DNA of 64,000 nt from Actinomycetota bacterium (GTDB lineage Bacteria > Actinomycetota > Acidimicrobiia > Acidimicrobiales > JAMCPD01), in the NCBI GenBank assembly GCA_023379935.1, contig JAMCPD010000020.1, positions 3,382 through 67,381 of the forward strand, read 5' to 3'. Made by a program: the position numbers and the translations under genes. The stretch's first letter is position 1, and each line of letters begins with the position of its first letter. The notes beneath the pieces were generated by a model. The model saw only the letters and a list, made by a program, of their open reading frames with translations, made no database searches and was not told where the DNA came from. Positions 3,907 through 52,048 of this stretch are shown piece after piece.

Positions 3907-4743
3907 ATGGACGTTTATCCCGCGATTGACATATTAGACGGTAGTTGTGTGAGGTTGGCGCAGGGCGATTTCAATCGCGTTACCGTTTATGGTGATCCTG
4001 TTGCCAAGGCATTGGAGCTACAAGCGTTGGGGGCAAAATGGATCCATGTGGTGGATTTAAACGCGGCACGTTCTAAAGGAGAGAACAGGGAAGTTGTGTT
4101 TGACATAGTGGGGCGGGTAAAGATACCTGTCCAGGTGGGAGGAGGAATAAGAGATGAGGCTTTCGCTGCGGAACTGTTGAATGGGGGAGTGGCAAGGATT
4201 GTGTTGGGTACAGCTGTGGTGGAGCAACCTGGTTTAATTGCATCTCTTTTAGCTAAATACCCTAAACGAATAGCGCTCGGGCTCGACTTTCGGGATGAGA
4301 AGTCCGGGGCGCAAGGCGAGGTCAGGCAAAATCCCAAGGCGGAGGTTAAAGCCACCATGGTGCATAGGTTGGTCACGAGGGGCTGGGCGAATACTTCCAG
4401 TTTAACTCTGGAAGGCGCCCTTGATAGTGTGACAAACTGGGGAGTTTCTGTCGTAGTTGTGACCGATACAAGCAAAGATGGGATGATGAGCGGGCCAAAC
4501 ATCGATACACTAAAGGATGTGTTGCGAGTAGCAGGACCTAACGGAGTTGGCGTGATTGCTTCGGGCGGTGTGCGTTGTATAGAAGATATTGCCAACTTAA
4601 CGGCAGTTGATGTAGGGGGGTATAGTTTGCTTGGCGTTATCGTAGGTAGGGCTTTGGCTGAAGGAGCTGTAGACTTGTCGGATGCAATGGACGCAACCCT
4701 GGGAGTGAATATGTCCGGATCCAAACAGCGACAGTTACCATGA
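3907..4743 (+). CDS. hisA: Phosphoribosylformimino-AICAR isomerase (HisA/PriA type)
   Basis: [38 protein letters not shown]. Carries a ~20-aa loop insertion. Confidence 0.94.
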
Positions 4744-5640: not shown

Positions 5641-7017
5641 GTGCTTTCCAATTCCCGAGATATGCCCTTGTCAGTTGGGGATATTTATGAACAAATCAAA
5701 CGTATGGTTCGTGAAGGGTTTCCCAAGTGGGTATGGGTTGTAGGTGAAATAGCCAAAGTTGAGGTACGTAGGGGAAATTGCTGGATAGATCTTGTGGAAT
5801 CGAAGATGCCCGCTGTTTTGCATAACAGTCGTGAGCGCCAGCGTATGTTAAAACTGGTGGCATTCTCTTTTCAGGGCGGTGAGCTTTCAAAGAAGTTATC
5901 CGATTCCAATTTAGAACTTGCAAACGGAATGTTTATAAAGGTTTTAGGTGAGGTTTCCCTATGGGAGGGAGGTTCAATGTTACAGCTTGTTGTCCATGAC
6001 ATAGATGTTGAAGCCTTGCTTGGAGAACTTGCCGCGAGGCGCGAACGGTTGCGAAAGGCGCTCATTGCTGAAGGCTTACTGGGGGTGGGTAAGGGCAACA
6101 AAGCGTTGTTACTGCCTAAGCTGCCTCTCAAAGTCGGGCTGGTGGCATCTTACGGTACTCAAGGGTGGCATGACTTTTTAGGGCAAATCAGGGACTCGGG
6201 CTTTGGGTTTCATGTGAATTTTGTGGATACACCCGTTCAAGGGAGTGAAGCCGCCGCCGGTATTGTTCAAGCTGTTAGATCGTTGGGCATGCCAGAGGTG
6301 GACATTGACGTGATTGTTATTGTAAGAGGCGGTGGATCCAAGTCTGATCTTGCAGTGTTTGATTCCGAGGATGTGGTAAGGGCTGTGGCAAGTTCCTCAA
6401 AATGTGTTTGGACCGGCATAGGGCATACCCAAGATGTTTCTTTGACGGATGAAGTTGCCCATACATCCTTCATAACCCCCACCGAATGTGGACAGGGACT
6501 TGCCAGGGAGGTAAGTGGGTTTTGGGATGAAAGTGTTCAAAAGATGAACTATATATTCCAAACAGTTAATACTTGTCTGGAACGTTCTATAGGCGAGCTT
6601 TCCTCCCAAGCCGGAGTGCTTCGTACAAGAGGACTGGGTAGGTTGGAGGCAGCAACAGGTAATGTAAGTTCGCAAGTTAATACCATTGTTCGTCAATCGC
6701 GCTCGAATTTGGATGCCAACAGACGTGAGATCCTAAACAAAGCTGGCTTACTTCGATCAAGTTGGCTTCATTTCTCTAAGATGTTAGAAACACAAGTTTT
6801 GAATAAAAAAGCTCTTCTTTTTGCACATAATCCCACCCAGCAACTGATGAGAGGATGGTGCATGGTTAGGGATTCAAACGGAAAACTACTGCGTTCTGTA
6901 AATAATGTTAAGATTGGGGATAAGATCTCGACCAAGTTTTTCGATGGAATTCTCGACAGCGAGGTTTGCAAAGTTTATGAGGTGAAATATAACAGTGACA
7001 GCGAAGGAAACAGGTGA
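5641..7017 (+). CDS. xseA: Exodeoxyribonuclease VII large subunit
   Basis: N-terminal OB-fold (VWVVGEI), VQG, IVRGGGSKSDL, TGIGH..D, TPT, C-terminal P...L.RG. Confidence 0.93.
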   Translation: MLSNSRDMPLSVGDIYEQIKRMVREGFPKWVWVVGEIAKVEVRRGNCWIDLVESKMPAVLHNSRERQRMLKLVAFSFQGGELSKKLSDSNLELANGMFIKVLGEVSLWEGGSMLQLVVHDIDVEALLGELAARRERLRKALIAEGLLGVGKGNKALLLPKLPLKVGLVASYGTQGWHDFLGQIRDSGFGFHVNFVDTPVQGSEAAAGIVQAVRSLGMPEVDIDVIVIVRGGGSKSDLAVFDSEDVVRAVASSSKCVWTGIGHTQDVSLTDEVAHTSFITPTECGQGLAREVSGFWDESVQKMNYIFQTVNTCLERSIGELSSQAGVLRTRGLGRLEAATGNVSSQVNTIVRQSRSNLDANRREILNKAGLLRSSWLHFSKMLETQVLNKKALLFAHNPTQQLMRGWCMVRDSNGKLLRSVNNVKIGDKISTKFFDGILDSEVCKVYEVKYNSDSEGNR

Positions 7018-7348
7018 AGTAATGGAAGCGGCCGAAACGGGAGAAGTGACTGAACAGGTTGACCTGTCTGACTTGAGTTATTTGGCAATTGCACGCCAGT
7101 TGGATCAGATTATCCAAGAGTTGGATAAAGGACAAGTTGATGTAGATACACTTGACATCAGATTTAGCCAAGCCGTAGAGCTGGTCGAGGAGTTGAATCG
7201 TCGTATCAACAGGGCTAAAATGAAAGTCGAAGAGCTGACCCCCAGGCTGAAATCTGTGTTTGACACCCCTGCGGGTGATGATACCCCGACAACTTATGAC
7301 ATTTCGGCAACTTCCGATACCCAACCAACCAATGATCCTCCGTTCTAG
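6995..7348 (+). CDS. xseB: Exodeoxyribonuclease VII small subunit
   Basis: LSY...L..II..LD.G.VDVD.L helical pattern directly after xseA, with acidic N- and C-terminal extensions. Confidence 0.82.
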   Translation: MTAKETGEVMEAAETGEVTEQVDLSDLSYLAIARQLDQIIQELDKGQVDVDTLDIRFSQAVELVEELNRRINRAKMKVEELTPRLKSVFDTPAGDDTPTTYDISATSDTQPTNDPPF

Positions 7349-35416: not shown

Positions 35417-36976
35417 CTAGCCATTGGATCTCACTGCCGCACCAACCATTTTCACCACCGACCAAGTTCCCGGTATCCGTTGTTCATTTTCTGCCAAAAC
35501 TCTGTACCAGAGTGATGTTGCGGGAGCGTTTCGATCTGTCCAAGGCGTACTGTCATCAGTGGCGCAACGGTTGCACACTGTAGACCAGGGGCCGCTTGGT
35601 CCCGCAGTTGAACGTTCAATGCTATATGTAGCTGCATCCGTTGTTCCGCGCCAAGCGATCTCTACAGAAGAACTACGGTGTTTGTCTGTTTTGGCTATCC
35701 GCCGGGCAAGTGTTATGAGCGGCTCGCCCGGAGGAGGCTCAAGCGGTTCATAACCACCCCCGATTCCTCGTGTTTTTTGAATAGCATAGTCGAATTTACG
35801 GATAAGGTGATCTCGCTTGCGCATTAGGGGGGATATACCCGGATAATGGAGTGTTTCTCCGTCGTTATGCTGTTCGTAGCCGTAAGTGTCAAGGTGGGCA
35901 AATAAGGACCAAAATGCCCAACCCGCAATCTTATGATCTTTTTCTATCGTTCTGAACAGTTGCGCATTAGCGAATATTGATCCGTACTCTCCGGCAATGA
36001 AAACCTTGCCTGCGTTCGTTACTTGGTTGGCATCCGCTATTACGTTTGGGATAATTGGTGGGTAAAAGTGTGCGTCAACGATATCGATAAGAGGAGCGGT
36101 TAGCGTTGCAGGATTAATGCCGAACTGTTCTCCGGCAGCTATCAGTTGATCTGGTGCCAGGTGGTGTATGAATGCAGCGATTGTGTCAATCCATGATGGA
36201 GTCATACCGTTCAGCTCATTGCCAAGTTCCCACGCCATGATTGTCGGATCGTTTCGGAGCTCAAGTCCGGTATAAGGGTTTTTATGATCAAGTAATACGG
36301 TTATATACTGTTCAAAGGCCGAGATTGCCTGTTGATCGGTGTAAAAGGCTTGAGAGGGAATCTTGAGCCAGTGTGTGAAGTCATGATAACTCCCTTCGTA
36401 ATAATGCCAGTTGTCTGTCAGTGGAATTATCAATCGAATTCCAAGATGACAGGCTTGGTCAACAGCGTAGTCAACTGTTCGAAATGCTTGGCTGTTGAAG
36501 TGTCCGAGAGATGGTTCAAGGCTGTCCGGATTGCCGGTAGAAATACCCAAGGTATGCGATCTAACTACGGTTACACCCATGTCCAAAGCGGTTTTTAAAG
36601 CATCGCGAATTCTAAAATCTGTAGGATATGCTATTCCCCCTACATTTTCATCCAGCCCAAGCCAGTAGATGTTAGCTCCCCCGAAACGAAATGGATGGTC
36701 ATTGAGCACCAATGTCGAACCTTTGCGTGTTATGTAAGCATTTGTTGGCGGTATCTGGCCGGTGGATGGCGTTGGAGAGCAATCAATAGGAGGGTTTGGT
36801 GCGGGGAAATGTCTTGGCACCAGAGCCATGTTGGAGTGTGGTGCACAGCTTGTGCTAAGAAGTATAATGGCAAACAGTACACACCACAGTAGAAGTCTTA
36901 GATGTCTTGGGCGCATAGATGTAAAATGTTCACAGTCAGCCTTAGCATGATTGGCGCTACAGGCATATGTCTTCAT
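35417..36976 (-). CDS. Secreted/lipoprotein GH5 glycoside hydrolase (beta-mannanase-like) with an FN3-like C-terminal domain
   Basis: F.GAN.YWLG, acid/base AWELGNE, H.Y, nucleophile AGEYG, FWSL; possible lipobox LSTSC; C-terminal WRG...Y.IERS...YRV.A.N. Confidence 0.8.
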   Translation of the reverse strand: MKTYACSANHAKADCEHFTSMRPRHLRLLLWCVLFAIILLSTSCAPHSNMALVPRHFPAPNPPIDCSPTPSTGQIPPTNAYITRKGSTLVLNDHPFRFGGANIYWLGLDENVGGIAYPTDFRIRDALKTALDMGVTVVRSHTLGISTGNPDSLEPSLGHFNSQAFRTVDYAVDQACHLGIRLIIPLTDNWHYYEGSYHDFTHWLKIPSQAFYTDQQAISAFEQYITVLLDHKNPYTGLELRNDPTIMAWELGNELNGMTPSWIDTIAAFIHHLAPDQLIAAGEQFGINPATLTAPLIDIVDAHFYPPIIPNVIADANQVTNAGKVFIAGEYGSIFANAQLFRTIEKDHKIAGWAFWSLFAHLDTYGYEQHNDGETLHYPGISPLMRKRDHLIRKFDYAIQKTRGIGGGYEPLEPPPGEPLITLARRIAKTDKHRSSSVEIAWRGTTDAATYSIERSTAGPSGPWSTVCNRCATDDSTPWTDRNAPATSLWYRVLAENEQRIPGTWSVVKMVGAAVRSNG

Positions 36977-37110
36977 AGGCAGCTATTATAGCCGTCTTGG
37001 GAGTGGTTGGGTTGACCAAGGCGGGAAGGCAAGGGAAAAACCTGTTTTTGTGAGTTATTGATAAAATTTTAAAAGGATATCCACCGGTTAATTGATTTAA
37101 TGCACTAAAC

Positions 37111-37126
37111 TCAAACATATGTTTGT
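37111..37126. promoter_or_regulatory. LexA/SOS-box-like palindrome overlapping the ruvC start codon
   Basis: TCAAAC-ATAT-GTTTGT, with a perfect 14-bp palindrome CAAACATATGTTTG. Resembles the actinobacterial TCGAAC-N4-GTTCGA. A -10 TAAACT lies immediately upstream. Confidence 0.5.
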
Positions 37127-37655
37127 ATTAGGTATAGACCCCGGACTATCACGATGTGGTTATGGGTGTGTTGATGACGGTTGGGTGTTGGCGGATGCAG
37201 GCGTAATCTCTACCCACCACAGGTTAGAGTTGCCAAAGCGACTTGAATACTTATTTGAGGAGTTGAAACGGCTTATGTTACGGTTGCAACCGCAAGTCGT
37301 GGCAGTGGAAAGAGTGTTTTTTCAAGTAAATGCCCGCACCGCCATGCCAACAGCCCAAGCAGGAGGGTTGGCTTTGTTGGCCGCTCAACAGGCAGGCTGT
37401 AAAGTAGTTCAATATACCTCCAATGAAGTGAAAATGGCTGTTGTAGGTTATGGTGGTGCCACCAAGGCTCAAGTTCAGAATATGGTAATGATGTTGTTGA
37501 GTTTGGATGAGATACCACAACCGGCTGATGTTGCGGATGCTCTTGGTTTGGCAATCTGCCACTTAAGTTCGCTACCGCTGCAAAGGGCGTTGTCGAAGTC
37601 AACTACCCCGCCCTCACGGACGGGGCTTGCGGAAGGTTCCGGAAGCCCAGGTTGA
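37119..37655 (+). CDS. ruvC: Holliday junction resolvase RuvC (last 18 aa encoded by the inserted element)
   Basis: GIDPG, VERVFF, Y...VK.AV.GYG.A.K.QV, D.ADA..AICH. Confidence 0.96.
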   Translation: MFVLGIDPGLSRCGYGCVDDGWVLADAGVISTHHRLELPKRLEYLFEELKRLMLRLQPQVVAVERVFFQVNARTAMPTAQAGGLALLAAQQAGCKVVQYTSNEVKMAVVGYGGATKAQVQNMVMMLLSLDEIPQPADVADALGLAICHLSSLPLQRALSKSTTPPSRTGLAEGSGSPG

Positions 37656-37940
37656 CCAGACCGAGATATTAAAGAAAGAAGGTGAGACAGATATCTACGT
37701 TACATGCAAGTAAGAAGACCTATCCTGGGATGCTTCCTCAGTCCCAGGCTCTAGAATCCGCGTCAGTAGACAACCGTAAGGGCAAGGACGAAACGGGGCG
37801 TGGAGGTTGTGGATACACAACAACTGGCATGCAACATGGTCGAGGGGATCGTTCTTTGGAGTTCACCTCTCTAAAGAACAGTCACCCCGTGACTTCGGAG
37901 AAATCCGGGGGAGCAGGAGCAAGGAGCGTTGTTGCTCCAT
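37578..37940 (+). ncRNA. omega-RNA (HEARO-like scaffold) with a 5' guide taken from the flanking ruvC sequence
   Basis: GTCAAC...GTTGACCAG stem, CTACGTT, CCTGGGATGCTTCCTCAGTCCCAGGCTCT hairpin, CAACATGGTCGAGGGGA, terminal hairpin 37916-37938; directly upstream of the PLMP-like domain. Boundaries approximate. Confidence 0.8.
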
Positions 37941-39397
37941 TTAGTACCCAATCACGGGTGTTTGTGGTTGACAGCCACGGCAACCCTCTCGTTCCCTGTC
38001 ATCCAGCCAGGGCACGGAAATTGCTAAAGTCCAGGCGAGCCAGAGTCCACCATTTGGCTCCGTTTGTCATTAAATTGGTGGATAGGGAAGTAGAGCAGTG
38101 TGAGGTTCCGGGAGTTGTCGTGAAGATTGACCCTGGCTCCAAATACACCGGTATTGTTTGCGCTCGCGTGGATGAGGCCGGTATAACTCATGGGCTGGTG
38201 TCGATCCAGCTTGATCATCGCGGGCAGTTGATTCACAAAAAGATGGGACAGCGGTCCAGCTATCGCCGACGCAGACGGTCAACCAATTTACGTTATCGTG
38301 CACCACGATGGAGAAATCGCCACCCACAGGCTTGTCGGACATGTGGAAAAAATGCAAAACATGGAAGTCGATATTGTGGAACGTGTCTTGAGAGTCGTAA
38401 TTTCATAGATAATGGATATCGCCAATACCGACTTCCACCAAGCCTTTTCCATCGAGTTGCGACCTCCATATCATGGATAAATCGTTTGTCCAGGTGGGCT
38501 CCGGTTACAAGATTGGCGATGGAGCTGGTGAGCTTTGATACCCAGGTGATGCAGAACCCTGAGATATCCGGTGTTCAGTATCAACAAGGTACCCTGGCGG
38601 GCTACGAGGTACGGGAGTATCTTCTTTGTAAGTGGGGGAGGAGGTGTGCATACTGTGGAGATGCCAACACACCTCTACAAATTGAGCACATTCTGGCTCG
38701 CTCCAAAGGTGGAACGAATCGAATCTCAAATCTTACCCTTGCCTGTAGGAAATGTAACGAATCCAAAGGCTCTCTAGCTGTAGATGCTTGGTGCAAGCGA
38801 TATTTCGGAGAACAAAAGGGAAGGAAAATTGTTGCCAGAGTCACCGGCCAGGCCAAAGCTCCCTTGACGGATGCAGCGGCGGTCAATTCCACCCGTTGGG
38901 CATTGTGGCGGGAGCTTGTTAAGACAGGGCTACCAGTTGAGACCGGTACGGGTGGGCGAACTAAATGGAATCGTAGTCGGCAGAACATCCCTAAGTCTCA
39001 TACATTGGATGCTCTGTGTGTAGGTGTGACCGATATCGTCGGTGCAGTGCCAAGCAGTGCACTAACTGTCACCTGCACAGGACGAGGCCAACACCAGAGG
39101 ACAAGACCCAATAGATATGGTTTTGTCCGTCTAAGACTACCTCGACAAAAGACCCATCACGGCTTACGTACAGGTGATTATGTGCGGGCAGTGATGCCAA
39201 AAGGCAAATACAAAGGAGTTCATGTTGGACGTATAAGTGTGCGATCATCTGGAAGCGTTCGAGTAGGAAAGACAGACGGCATTTCTGCGAAGAATTGCAC
39301 GGTTTTGCAACGAGCAGATGGTTATGGATATGAGAGAAAGGAGGAAACGCCTCTCCTCCCCGCCCTTACGGACGAGGTATCCGAGGCGTGAAAATTG
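37598..39397 (+). mobile_element. Non-autonomous IS200/IS605-family OMEGA element (omega-RNA + iscB, no tnpA)
   Basis: Begins GTCAACTACCCCGCCC. Matching subterminal hairpins CCCCGCCCTCACGGACGGGG (37606-37625) and CCCCGCCCTTACGGACGAGG (39358-39377). No target-site duplication. Excision restores the ruvC stop/ruvA start. Confidence 0.92.
37682..39391 (+). CDS. iscB: RNA-guided endonuclease IscB
   Basis: PLMP-like VFVVD..GNPLVPCHPARAR.LL, RuvC-I IDPGSK, Arg-rich bridge helix, RuvC-II ELVSFD, HNH CAYC..IEHI..RSKGG.N..SNL.LAC..CN..K, RuvC-III SH.LDA, C-terminal LQRADGY.Y. The true start may be GTG 37958. Confidence 0.95.
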   Translation: MRQISTLHASKKTYPGMLPQSQALESASVDNRKGKDETGRGGCGYTTTGMQHGRGDRSLEFTSLKNSHPVTSEKSGGAGARSVVAPFSTQSRVFVVDSHGNPLVPCHPARARKLLKSRRARVHHLAPFVIKLVDREVEQCEVPGVVVKIDPGSKYTGIVCARVDEAGITHGLVSIQLDHRGQLIHKKMGQRSSYRRRRRSTNLRYRAPRWRNRHPQACRTCGKNAKHGSRYCGTCLESRNFIDNGYRQYRLPPSLFHRVATSISWINRLSRWAPVTRLAMELVSFDTQVMQNPEISGVQYQQGTLAGYEVREYLLCKWGRRCAYCGDANTPLQIEHILARSKGGTNRISNLTLACRKCNESKGSLAVDAWCKRYFGEQKGRKIVARVTGQAKAPLTDAAAVNSTRWALWRELVKTGLPVETGTGGRTKWNRSRQNIPKSHTLDALCVGVTDIVGAVPSSALTVTCTGRGQHQRTRPNRYGFVRLRLPRQKTHHGLRTGDYVRAVMPKGKYKGVHVGRISVRSSGSVRVGKTDGISAKNCTVLQRADGYGYERKEETPLLPALTDEVSEA

Positions 39398-40252
39398 ATG
39401 ATAGCATTCCTTGACGGTAGATTGATCTCCAAGTTAACACTTGCCGATAATGTCTCCGAAGTTGTAGTCGATGTCGGTGGAATAGGTTATCAAGTATTTG
39501 TCGCTGATCAGACCTTTGCCAAATTACCGGCTTCAACGGACAGAGTGCAGTTATGGATACATACCTATGTCAGAGAAGAAACCTTTGCGCTTTATGGATT
39601 TCTTGATCCAATAGAGAGAAAGTTTTTCCAAATTTTATTGACGGCCCGCGGTGTCGGTCCTTCGCTTGGGCTTTCATTGTTGTCGCTGCATTCGCCACTT
39701 ACGATATGGGAGGCGGTAACGGTAGAAGATGTGGATTTGTTGTCCTTGGTGCCAGGCATTGGACCTAAGACTGCCGCCCGGTTGTGCTTGGAGTTGAAGA
39801 ATCGTTTGCCGGATCGCCATGTGTTGGAGAGTTGGTCGGTAGGTTTATCGGCTTTGGGCTATGAAGCAGATGAGGGGAAAACGAATAAGGACGCAACAGA
39901 CGAAGGTGCGCCAAGCACGGACAAGGCGGTTCTTGTTCCGAAGCCAGCCGGGGACAAGAATGAAAAGAGCGGATCAGTGATTCTTGGGGTGGACGGGCCG
40001 GGGAATGGTTCTGCACTGGTAGATCTAAAGGGCGCCTTAGAGGAGTTGGGATATACACCAAAGGAGATTCGGTTTGCACTCTCGGCTATTTATTCATCAC
40101 AACTGAATGCAAGTATGCTAAATGGTGGAAAACAAGGCAGTGATTCTATGGATAGCCGCCAAAGCAAAGCAAGCCTGCAAGAGTTGTTGCGTTTTGCACT
40201 AAGTGAATTGAGACAGAAAAACGGAAATATAGAAAGGAACAGATCATGGTGA
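39398..40252 (+). CDS. ruvA: Holliday junction branch migration protein RuvA
   Basis: MIAFLDG, DVGGIGY, VRE...LYGF, GVGP, VPGIGPKTA.R..LELK, AL..LGY; long inserted linker. Confidence 0.93.
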   Translation: MIAFLDGRLISKLTLADNVSEVVVDVGGIGYQVFVADQTFAKLPASTDRVQLWIHTYVREETFALYGFLDPIERKFFQILLTARGVGPSLGLSLLSLHSPLTIWEAVTVEDVDLLSLVPGIGPKTAARLCLELKNRLPDRHVLESWSVGLSALGYEADEGKTNKDATDEGAPSTDKAVLVPKPAGDKNEKSGSVILGVDGPGNGSALVDLKGALEELGYTPKEIRFALSAIYSSQLNASMLNGGKQGSDSMDSRQSKASLQELLRFALSELRQKNGNIERNRSW

Positions 40253-41280
40253 GCGAGTTCAATGACAGTGAGGTTTCGTTAGTACGTACTTTGGATCCCC
40301 ACTCCGACCTTGAAGAGTCTTATCAAGAAATAGCTTTAAGACCCAAATATCTGAGAGATTTTGTGGGACAAACTTCGCTAAAAGATCATCTTGATATCAT
40401 GTTAACGGCAGCCAAGCAGCGTGAGTTATCCCTTGACCACCTTTTGTTTGTCGGCCCTCCCGGTCTTGGTAAGACCTCCTTGGCTCACATCGTTGCCACT
40501 GAACTTGGCGTGGGGTTTCATGTTACTTCAGGCCCTGTTCTGGTGCGAGGTGGGGATTTGGTGTCCATACTTACCGGGCTACAACCAGGCGATGTCCTGT
40601 TTATAGATGAACTGCATCGTCTCAGTAGAGCAGTAGAGGAGATTTTATATCCTGCCATGGAGGACTTTCAAGTTGACCTTCTTATAGGCAAAGGCCCGAC
40701 AGCTCGCTCTATACGCTTGGATGTGCCTCCGTTCACTTTGATCGGCGCTACTACCCGTACGGGGCTTATAACGGGTCCTTTGAGAGATCGTTTCGGTTTC
40801 GTGTCCCGCCTTGATTATTACAGTATTGGCGAGTTAAAAGATATCATACTGCGCTCTGCGCAGATATTGAAGGTGTCCATTAAACCTGAAGCGGCCCTGG
40901 AAATTGCTACACGAAGTCGGGGAACTCCTAGGATAGCAAACCGGCTTCTTAGGAGGATAAGAGATTTTGCTGAAGTACGCGCTAACGGTTGCATAACCAC
41001 TCAAGTGGCCGAAACGGGGTTGGATCTTTTTGAAGTAGACAAACTTGGACTTGACAAGTTGGATCGTGCTATACTTGAAACTCTTATCCTGCGTTTTGAA
41101 GGACGTCCGGTAGGACTGACTACTTTGGCGCAGTCTGTAGGAGAAGAGATGGATACTCTTCAGTATGTTTATGAACCTTTTCTACTCCAACAAGGGCTGT
41201 TGATAAGAACTGGAAAGGGAAGAGTTGCTACCTCGGCTGCTTTTAGGCACTTGGGCGTAGACTATGATCTTGATAAGTAG
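40246..41280 (+). CDS. ruvB: Holliday junction branch migration helicase RuvB
   Basis: LRP....FVGQ, GPPGLGKT, FIDE.HRL, GATTR.G, RGTPRIANRLLRR. Confidence 0.98.
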   Translation: MVSEFNDSEVSLVRTLDPHSDLEESYQEIALRPKYLRDFVGQTSLKDHLDIMLTAAKQRELSLDHLLFVGPPGLGKTSLAHIVATELGVGFHVTSGPVLVRGGDLVSILTGLQPGDVLFIDELHRLSRAVEEILYPAMEDFQVDLLIGKGPTARSIRLDVPPFTLIGATTRTGLITGPLRDRFGFVSRLDYYSIGELKDIILRSAQILKVSIKPEAALEIATRSRGTPRIANRLLRRIRDFAEVRANGCITTQVAETGLDLFEVDKLGLDKLDRAILETLILRFEGRPVGLTTLAQSVGEEMDTLQYVYEPFLLQQGLLIRTGKGRVATSAAFRHLGVDYDLDK

Positions 41281-51142: not shown

Positions 51143-52048
51143 TTATGACTTGCGAATATCTTTTATGATCTCCCAGAAATCGTTGCGTACGGTATGCAGA
51201 TACCCAACACCACCCACGAGATTGTTTCTGGCTTGCACAAATATCGTCTTGTTGCCCGGGTATCCTTGTGGGGTTGCTTCAAGCACATTGTTTGTTGCGC
51301 TAGCTGTGTCAGAATCTGCTTGAGATAATGCCGAGTTTAGGTTCTGGAGGGTTGCTTCTGCTGAGCCAACGTTTAAACCTTGTTGTTGTGCAGTGGTGAT
51401 AGCAGCTTGGATTTCTGGAATAACTGCGGCTATCTGCAGCTCGACATAGCTTTCCCTGTCTTTAGCCATGGTCAGTTCCACTTGAGGTGACATTACCATA
51501 AAAACTCGGTAGTTTTCTATCATTGAGCGAGCATATACCTGAAGCTGATAACGATCAGTAGTTGCTTGCACTTCCCCCAGTAGTGTTTCCATGCCGGATG
51601 TCTCATTGCTCAAAAGATTATCCAAAGCGGACTTATCGGTGGTCGTAAGAGTTGCAGATGCATTTACCCTTGCAGTTAGTTTACTCAGTTGCAAAAGGCG
51701 AATGTTTATCTGTTGTTCGACTCTTTGTTGCAACTCCATACAAGGTGTAGTTGTCGACGAACCGCTTACACTTGAACTCTGCGGGACGACATTACTTGAA
51801 ACCGATGTACTACTCGTAGCAGCATTCGGCAATGTAGATGCAGTTACGCATGGGCCTAAATGGGGAACTCTGGGAACCCTTGGAGATAGCTGTGCGCCTG
51901 CCGCAGATGGGGTAAGTCCTATTATGGTTGCAATAACCAGCACCGACGATAATAAGACTACGTTTTTTTTAAATATAAAAGTTTTCATGATTGTTCTCCT
52001 TGTTCTTTTGACTCTTCCTGTTTTCATAGCTGTTTTCATAGTTATCAT
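51143..52048 (-). CDS. Secreted helical/coiled-coil hypothetical protein
   Basis: Basic N-region, hydrophobic core with AGA cleavage site, Ser/Thr linker, heptad-like helices. ATGA-coupled to the upstream lipoprotein. Confidence 0.75.
   Translation of the reverse strand: MITMKTAMKTGRVKRTRRTIMKTFIFKKNVVLLSSVLVIATIIGLTPSAAGAQLSPRVPRVPHLGPCVTASTLPNAATSSTSVSSNVVPQSSSVSGSSTTTPCMELQQRVEQQINIRLLQLSKLTARVNASATLTTTDKSALDNLLSNETSGMETLLGEVQATTDRYQLQVYARSMIENYRVFMVMSPQVELTMAKDRESYVELQIAAVIPEIQAAITTAQQQGLNVGSAEATLQNLNSALSQADSDTASATNNVLEATPQGYPGNKTIFVQARNNLVGGVGYLHTVRNDFWEIIKDIRKS

Follow-up and report, generated by a model that had tools for sequence, protein, structure and literature searches.

The window analysed here (64,000 nucleotides (nt) of contig JAMCPD010000020.1, assembly GCA_023379935.1, from an Actinomycetota bacterium of the order Acidimicrobiales) carries an insertion sequence encoding the RNA-guided endonuclease IscB, which is placed between ruvC and ruvA, directly in front of the ruvA start codon. 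Taken by itself, the element is an unremarkable IscB insertion sequence of an already known kind; what is of interest is the position at which it and its relatives have inserted. Analysis of this family revealed that its members dock at the 5' edge of ATG-A start codons, and that overlaps between a stop and a start codon, such as the one at ruvC/ruvA, constitute a subset of these sites. When the element was removed, the ATG of the target motif opened a reading frame of at least 60 codons at 40 of the 50 scorable sites (32 of 38 in a stricter tier), compared with 401 of 1,435 (27.9%) other ATGA sites on both strands of the same flanks (Fisher p 1e-13). A non-autonomous IscB element placed next to ATGA, following a start-codon rule common to its family, is very probably the best overall explanation of these data.

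Ends of the element and its second copy

The source genome (1.9 Mb in 25 contigs, 90.8% complete) contains a second copy of the element, located between the genes of an FGGY-family sugar kinase and a pyridoxal phosphate (PLP)-dependent decarboxylase. The two copies are 100% identical over window positions 37597-39401 and have unrelated flanks. Together with the start of the match to the Rfam HEARO model, a right-end profile (see below) and breaks in metagenomic contigs, this copy provided four lines of evidence that fixed the ends of the element at 37598 and 39397, in agreement with a preliminary description of this DNA, which had placed it exactly at an ATGA overlap of ruvC and ruvA. In transposase terms, the right end (RE) of the element is at 37598 and the left end (LE) at 39397.

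Among 53 resolved insertions of the family, the base preceding the element was variable (A 15, T 14, C 12, G 12), for which reason the element was taken to start at 37598. Since this base is free and the ATGA following the element is conserved, the A shared by both copies on the left reflects chance, and the ATGA shared on the right is the target motif. In contigs of four mine-drainage runs (X9-X12, from another study), the match to the window ends at 37597/37598 and at 39394/39401, and the contigs continue into several other left and right flanks. No target duplication was found at either copy; both are followed by ATGA (ATGAA in the case of the second copy), their flanks being otherwise unlike. 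The assignment of ATGA to the target, as the preliminary description had it, therefore agrees with both copies and with the 53 resolved sites, where the motif following the right end was ATGA in 45 cases, ATGG in 7 and GTGA in 1. The base after ATGA was A in 28 of the 45 relatives, and there was no flank preference beyond this A at +5.

The possibility that ATGA forms part of the element was rejected: ruvA would lose its start and ruvC its stop, and the junction found in relatives conflicts with such an arrangement.

Removal of the second copy likewise restores an ATGA stop/start overlap, the codon split at the junction changing silently from CAA to CAG, and the sugar kinase upstream carries an 18-amino-acid (aa) tail identical to that of RuvC described below.

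The empty site at ruvC/ruvA

Joining of 37597 to 39398 yields a ruvC of 160 codons, whose TGA overlaps the ATG of ruvA; this is the same empty site, with a 160-aa RuvC, as that rebuilt in the preliminary description. The ruvC codon split by the junction changes from AAA to AAG, which is silent. With the element in place, RuvC gains 18 residues and ruvA keeps its ATG, as had also been described and as we confirmed from the sequence and its open reading frames (ORFs).

The nearest genomes available for comparison were of the same order only, with RuvC at most 65% identical. In each of these 29 relatives ruvC and ruvA are neighbours, without any insertion between them. A script detected an ATGA overlap in 11 of the 29 and a GTGA overlap in 11, so that an A/GTGA junction is present in at least 22; inspection by eye added L019 and L033. 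RuvA begins with M/V-I-G in the same-order relatives. Judging from these sequences, the rebuilt junction represents the normal state of the operon in the order.

At the ruvC/ruvA junction of L019, a short unit that starts with ATGA and the first ruvA codons is repeated three times in tandem. The window contains five other ATGA overlaps of long ORFs, all of them unoccupied: those at hisD/hisC (1318), hisC/hisB (2445), hisA/hisF (4740) and hisS/aspS (59917) on the plus strand, which had been listed in the preliminary description and are real, and one at 52048 on the minus strand. DNA nearly identical to that of the window was found in runs X1-X13 (mine tailings, sediment and mine drainage; three studies), ten of which contained at least half of the sampled words.

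Start codons as targets of the family

Most of the family data were obtained by scanning metagenomes with a 47-sequence IscB alignment, from which the best 80 of 542 relatives (45-79% identical) were retained; a scan of genome contigs with a single IscB protein yielded 2 loci only. Left and right are used here in the reading direction of iscB. In 51 of these loci the left end was recognized by a HEARO match that reached the gathering score, and a profile of the first 110 nt placed 21 more, to which six from other searches were added; with the window and the second copy included, this gave 80 sources with a left end. The right-end profile, which replaced an earlier method (a match to the element's own RE hairpin) that had resolved 28 of 52, defined 53 distinct insertions, of which 39 were aligned through the final ATGA and 14 were accepted by a looser rule. 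The right ends of the family are composed of a common hairpin and a short conserved tail.

At three of the 53 sites the ORFs ran off the contigs, and these sites could not be scored in the ORF test. When an in-frame stop at most 30 codons upstream was also required, 28 of 50 sites remained, compared with 158 of 1,435 controls. A Pfam domain (E <= 1e-5) was identified in 21 of 38 downstream ORFs, and several of them (MazE, LacI, the XseA OB fold, MFS and DUF480) align with the profile from about their first residue onwards. The frames downstream are genuine host genes of diverse kinds. A ribosome-binding-like 4-mer was present at -18 to -4 of the host flank at 17 of 52 sites, compared with 178 of 1,466 controls (12.1%), and this excess indicates that the elements lie between the ribosome-binding site and the start codon. 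A co-directional ORF of at least 60 codons ended within about 40 nt upstream of the motif or in the motif itself at 19 of the 53 sites. The search of the order added two further genomes, one (L133) with a plain start site and the other (L134) with a true overlap.

The frame entered by an overlapping upstream gene stops after exactly five codons in 42 of 52 elements, the stop being located in the loop of the RE hairpin, while the remaining two frames have medians of 15 and 11 codons. This regularity could be a one-in-three coincidence. The element in the window does not have the stop in the RE loop, which accounts for its 18-aa tail.

Several relatives displayed peculiarities of their own. L051, the closest metagenomic relative (79% identical, on a 190-kb contig), has neither the LE hairpin nor the terminal sequence (4270-4500); past the 3' end of its iscB there is unrelated sequence, followed by a host-like AAGGAG and ATGA, and it may be an immobilised copy. 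L115 has two HEARO matches on the same strand (2748-2958 and 6858-7070; 140 and 150 bits) at a distance of 4.1 kb, which suggests two elements near each other. In L065 a stretch of about 26 nt from the left flank is found again just past the right-end region, an arrangement that could be tandem or nested, and this site was left out as unresolved. tmRNA genes were found on the opposite strand about 0.5-0.9 kb upstream of two related elements (L055:1263-1686 and L061:67-425). A contig of run X11 joins 39338, located before the LE hairpin, to 37606 in the RE hairpin through 19 other letters; this link may stem from a short element related to this one, or the hairpin common to both ends may have affected the assembly. 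Finally, a 39-nt stretch of contig C10 (5915-5950, L003), on the opposite strand, resembles omegaRNA positions 37653-37691 at 87% and is possibly a relic fragment.

The stop codon of iscB

The iscB frame of many relatives ends within the target itself. In 21 of 50 elements the stop is built from target bases, either as the TGA of ATGA (15 elements) or as TG joined to the A of ATG (6 elements), and in these 21 elements an ATGA or TGATG junction is recreated in which iscB takes the upstream place. The iscB of the window stops 6 nt short of the ruvA ATG and in frame with it, with GAGG 10 nt upstream. The insertion separates the host ribosome-binding site from its ATG. Translation of ruvA, and of other host genes in this position, may be coupled to that of iscB, and the insertion may be benign, as the preliminary description had proposed.

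Structure of the element and the surrounding genes

In the region 36900-40300 the order is ruvC, the inserted block, ruvA and ruvB. The features are as follows.

37119..37655, plus strand: ruvC as it now reads, 178 aa (ORF list); native part to 37597
37582..37597, plus strand: presumed omegaRNA guide, host bases directly 5' of the element, placed by the adjoining omegaRNA start
37598..39397, plus strand: IscB element, 1,800 bp, delimited by the second copy, the HEARO start, the right-end profile and contig breaks
37598..37855, plus strand: omegaRNA scaffold (Rfam HEARO RF02033; cmscan 102.9 bits, E 2e-21)
37606..37625, no strand assigned: RE subterminal hairpin, 8 nt from the element end; minus-strand DNA fold
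37958..39391, plus strand: iscB, 477 aa; presumed GTG start at 37958, stop TGA at 39389-39391
39358..39377, no strand assigned: LE subterminal hairpin, in the 3' end of iscB, 20 nt from the element end
39398..39402, plus strand: target-adjacent motif (TAM) ATGA(T); ATG is the ruvA start and TGA was the ruvC stop before insertion
39398..40252, plus strand: ruvA, 284 aa; Pfam RuvA_N at residues 1-67 against profile positions 1-61
40246..41280, plus strand: ruvB, next gene of the operon; NCBIfam ruvB equivalog, E 4e-145

The RuvC domain of Pfam covers residues 3-148 of RuvC, positions 37598-37652 encode the element-derived tail, and the stop TGA is at 37653-37655; the RuvC proteins of relatives in the order are 159-221 aa long. 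The guide of IscB is about 16 nt in length. The geometry by which the guide was placed at 37582..37597 was taken from the available text of PMC10055086.

The HEARO alignment is end to end (model positions 1-211), and its score compares with a gathering score of 83. The omegaRNA is on the same strand as iscB and directly upstream of it, and its start coincides with the end of the element; it probably runs on towards the iscB start. Only two HEARO matches were found in the whole genome, and these correspond to the two copies of the element. Terminal inverted repeats are absent from the element ends, where subterminal hairpins on one strand are found instead. The two hairpins are similar 20-nt imperfect palindromes, that at the LE having a minus-strand DNA fold with z = -2.45.

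IscB proteins have a RuvC-like fold interrupted by an HNH domain, and a PLMP-type segment at the N-terminus. The protein encoded here conforms to this type and contains the Pfam domains RRXRR (E 4e-56) and HNH (E 2.5e-11). Of 8,000 candidates scored, 7,977 were homologues at E <= 1e-20, and many of these carry the name RNA-guided endonuclease IscB. Residues D58, E189, H244, H348 and D351, which we take to be catalytic, occupy invariant or nearly invariant columns of the 47-sequence alignment (A1). The element is thus a non-autonomous member of the IS200/IS605 family with an intact iscB and an omegaRNA, inserted next to a short target motif without duplication; its HEARO match, protein domains, hairpins and two copies all accord with the identification given in the preliminary description. 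A scan of the region 36900-40300 for promoters and terminators detected sites no more numerous than in shuffled sequences.

The open frame of iscB extends back through the omegaRNA to 37682, i.e. by about 90 codons (37682-37957), and most homologues in the databases have been called at 530-600 aa and not at about 477. What appears as a conserved N-terminal extension in alignment A1 is translated omegaRNA, and the long iscB calls are probably a routine over-call of gene finders. We flag this as an annotation error that concerns both iscB and the upstream gene, which are each called too long where their frames are open through the omegaRNA.

Alternative explanations

The preliminary description had regarded ATGA overlaps as safe harbours, enriched in insertions of this family, at which the outcome for the reading frame is always the same. 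The outcome is indeed fixed by geometry, both copies producing the 18-aa tail and a silent codon change, but no enrichment at overlaps was observed. It seems unlikely that stop/start overlaps are themselves the preferred targets, above other ATGA sites and ordinary start codons. Such a preference is favoured by the source genome, where stop/start-like overlaps represent 232 of 16,129 ATGA sites (1.4%) and both copies reside in one (p ~2e-4 for uniform choice, 0.004-0.017 among start-like sites only); with n=2, this placement is a hint. Three further true overlaps (L056, L059 and L134) and the stop after five codons, which would serve an overlapping upstream gene, also speak for it. In the family, however, true overlaps (both ORFs of at least 60 codons) accounted for 4 of 53 insertions, compared with 54 of 1,409 controls (Fisher p = 0.155), their share among start-like sites (4 of 40) was not higher than among the controls (54 of 401), and a long upstream ORF ended in the TGA of the motif at just 5 of 43 scorable sites. 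Overlaps are thus occupied about as often as their share of ATG-A starts predicts.

The association with start codons reflects either a preference in insertion or the survival of harmless insertions, and the two could not be separated. Selection alone would mean that the transposase inserts at any ATGA/TTCAT, that the surviving insertions are those that are harmless and transcribed from outside, and that there has been no adaptation to start codons; we take this possibility seriously but do not favour it. It is consistent with a TAM of only 4-5 nt, with the absence of any flank preference beyond A at +5 and with the 10 of 50 sites located away from long ORFs, and the need for outside transcription argued in the available text of PMC10055086 would likewise favour positions immediately upstream of a start codon. 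A crude gene map of the genome, with 497 start-like and 1,153 intergenic sense ATGA sites, leans against pure selection, as harmlessness alone would predict about 30% of insertions at starts and 80% were seen, a rough estimate extrapolated across genomes. The iscB frames that end in the target TGA or in TG + A (21 of 50) also argue against selection alone; both points nevertheless fit selection combined with some adaptation, and neither excludes selection by itself.

It is highly improbable that the copy at ruvC/ruvA is immobile or domesticated, with IscB and its RNA now serving the host (e.g. in ruvCAB expression) and the site being a frozen accident. The genome has no PF01797 match, IscB relatives are rare, with 5 genomes positive in the order and 7 in the phylum (401 searched in each case), and L051 is an example of a close relative that has lost its LE hairpin and terminal sequence. 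Domestication is contradicted by the two identical copies at unrelated sites, the intact ends and hairpins, the further flanks in metagenomic contigs, and the absence of the element from ruvC/ruvA in all 29 same-order relatives (0 of 29).

Several points weigh against the start-codon placement and the mobility of the element as proposed here. The 10 scorable family sites without a long ORF do not conform to the rule, and 27 of the 80 sources have no resolved right end, because the contig stopped, or because the end was diverged or missing. The right-end profile itself ends in ATGA, so that the frequency of this TAM may be overstated; the ORF tests are independent of this feature. In the family test, ORF length substitutes for gene calls, and the controls are other ATGA sites and not neutral insertion data. 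The iscB stop is more than 30 nt from the ATG in 20 of 50 elements, and a ribosome-binding-like motif is present in the last 20 nt of just 7 of 52; with distant stops and so few motifs, coupling is not the general answer. No contig bridging 37597 to 39398 was found in four runs, a result that is uninformative, as only contigs, from which rare forms are dropped, were available. The preliminary description had called for a tnpA acting in trans, but no match to the Y1 transposase (PF01797) was obtained from 4 candidates scored in the 90.8%-complete genome, and current mobility is therefore unproven.

Proposed mechanism and mobility

According to the available text of PMC10055086, tnpA is found near iscB in only about 1.5% of iscB elements, and its absence here is therefore no bar to membership of the IS200/IS605 family. 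The two identical copies with different flanks argue for a recent transposition, the transposase having come from elsewhere. The varied loose ends in the contigs of X9-X12 are a further sign of mobility.

We propose that a Y1 transposase acting in trans would have placed the element next to the ATGA that forms the ruvA start and formerly formed the ruvC stop. The omegaRNA, having no promoter of its own, would be read from the ruvC transcript, with the last ruvC bases as its guide. IscB with this guide could then cut the empty site, which offers both the guide match and ATGA, and a lost copy would be restored by recombination, i.e. by homing. Elements of the clade dock in sense orientation between the host ribosome-binding site and the ATG. 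Damage to the host would be limited in three ways: no reading frame is broken, an overlapping upstream gene gains only a short tail, and, where iscB ends at or a few bases from the host ATG, translation of the host gene could be coupled to that of iscB.

A more far-reaching reading, which we put forward only tentatively, is that in this IscB clade the ATGA motif was shaped to match the start codon and the ATGA/TGATG stop-start junction. It would comprise, jointly, docking before the ATG of a transcribed gene, a guide drawn from the host leader, and use of the target TGA as the iscB stop, so that a coupled junction would be rebuilt and one motif of four bases would be used by transposase and nuclease alike, and also as host start and iscB stop. 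If true, this shaped motif would explain the reported bias of iscB elements towards the orientation of their upstream genes in a way that is absent from the reporting paper.

The start-codon rule, should it hold in annotated genomes, would by itself provide a second reason for this bias, and would explain how RNA-guided transposons can be maintained in small, gene-dense genomes while leaving the genes unbroken. It also predicts host genes downstream that are translated by coupling to iscB.

Comparison with known systems

Docking at start codons and the shared stop were found nowhere in the literature searched, which did not include the two founding papers and the supplements, where they may be recorded. 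In the searched text of PMC10055086 the terms ATGAA, operon and ribosome are absent, and translation occurs in one reference title only; 'start codon' gave no match in the PMC copy and occurs once in the bioRxiv copy, in a context that was not read. HEARO is not mentioned in PMC2864571.

The element matches the HEARO/IscB (OMEGA) family (RF02033) in both its RNA model and its RRXRR + HNH protein, with no structural difference. Its closest described counterpart is the ISGst5 IscB element of Geobacillus stearothermophilus (Meers et al., PMC10055086, from the text available), which is likewise iscB-only, with an RE-bounded omegaRNA upstream of iscB, takes its guide from the flank and is mobilised in trans. 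Its TAM, TTCAT, is the reverse complement of ATGAA and thus reads ATGAA on the iscB strand, so that the statement of the preliminary description that ATGA-like TAMs are in print holds; ATGAA also follows the second copy and 28 of the 45 ATGA relatives. The same text places the RE at the omegaRNA side of iscB elements and the guide outside the element, and reports that the genes upstream of iscB elements are strongly biased to the same orientation, a bias attributed there to a requirement for transcription from outside.

IsrB of Desulfovirgula thermocuniculi (PMC9581776, as far as its text was available) belongs to a sister nuclease family, whose NTGA/TTGA TAM also accepts ATGA and lies on the same side of the target; in contrast to IscB, it has no HNH domain and only nicks. 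IStrons, as presented in the part of PMC13565253 consulted, are IS200/IS605 relatives in which, as here, the junctions have several roles and harm to host genes is limited. However, whereas IStrons are inserted within genes and are removed from the transcript by splicing, the IscB element stays in the RNA and avoids reading frames by its position at the start codon.

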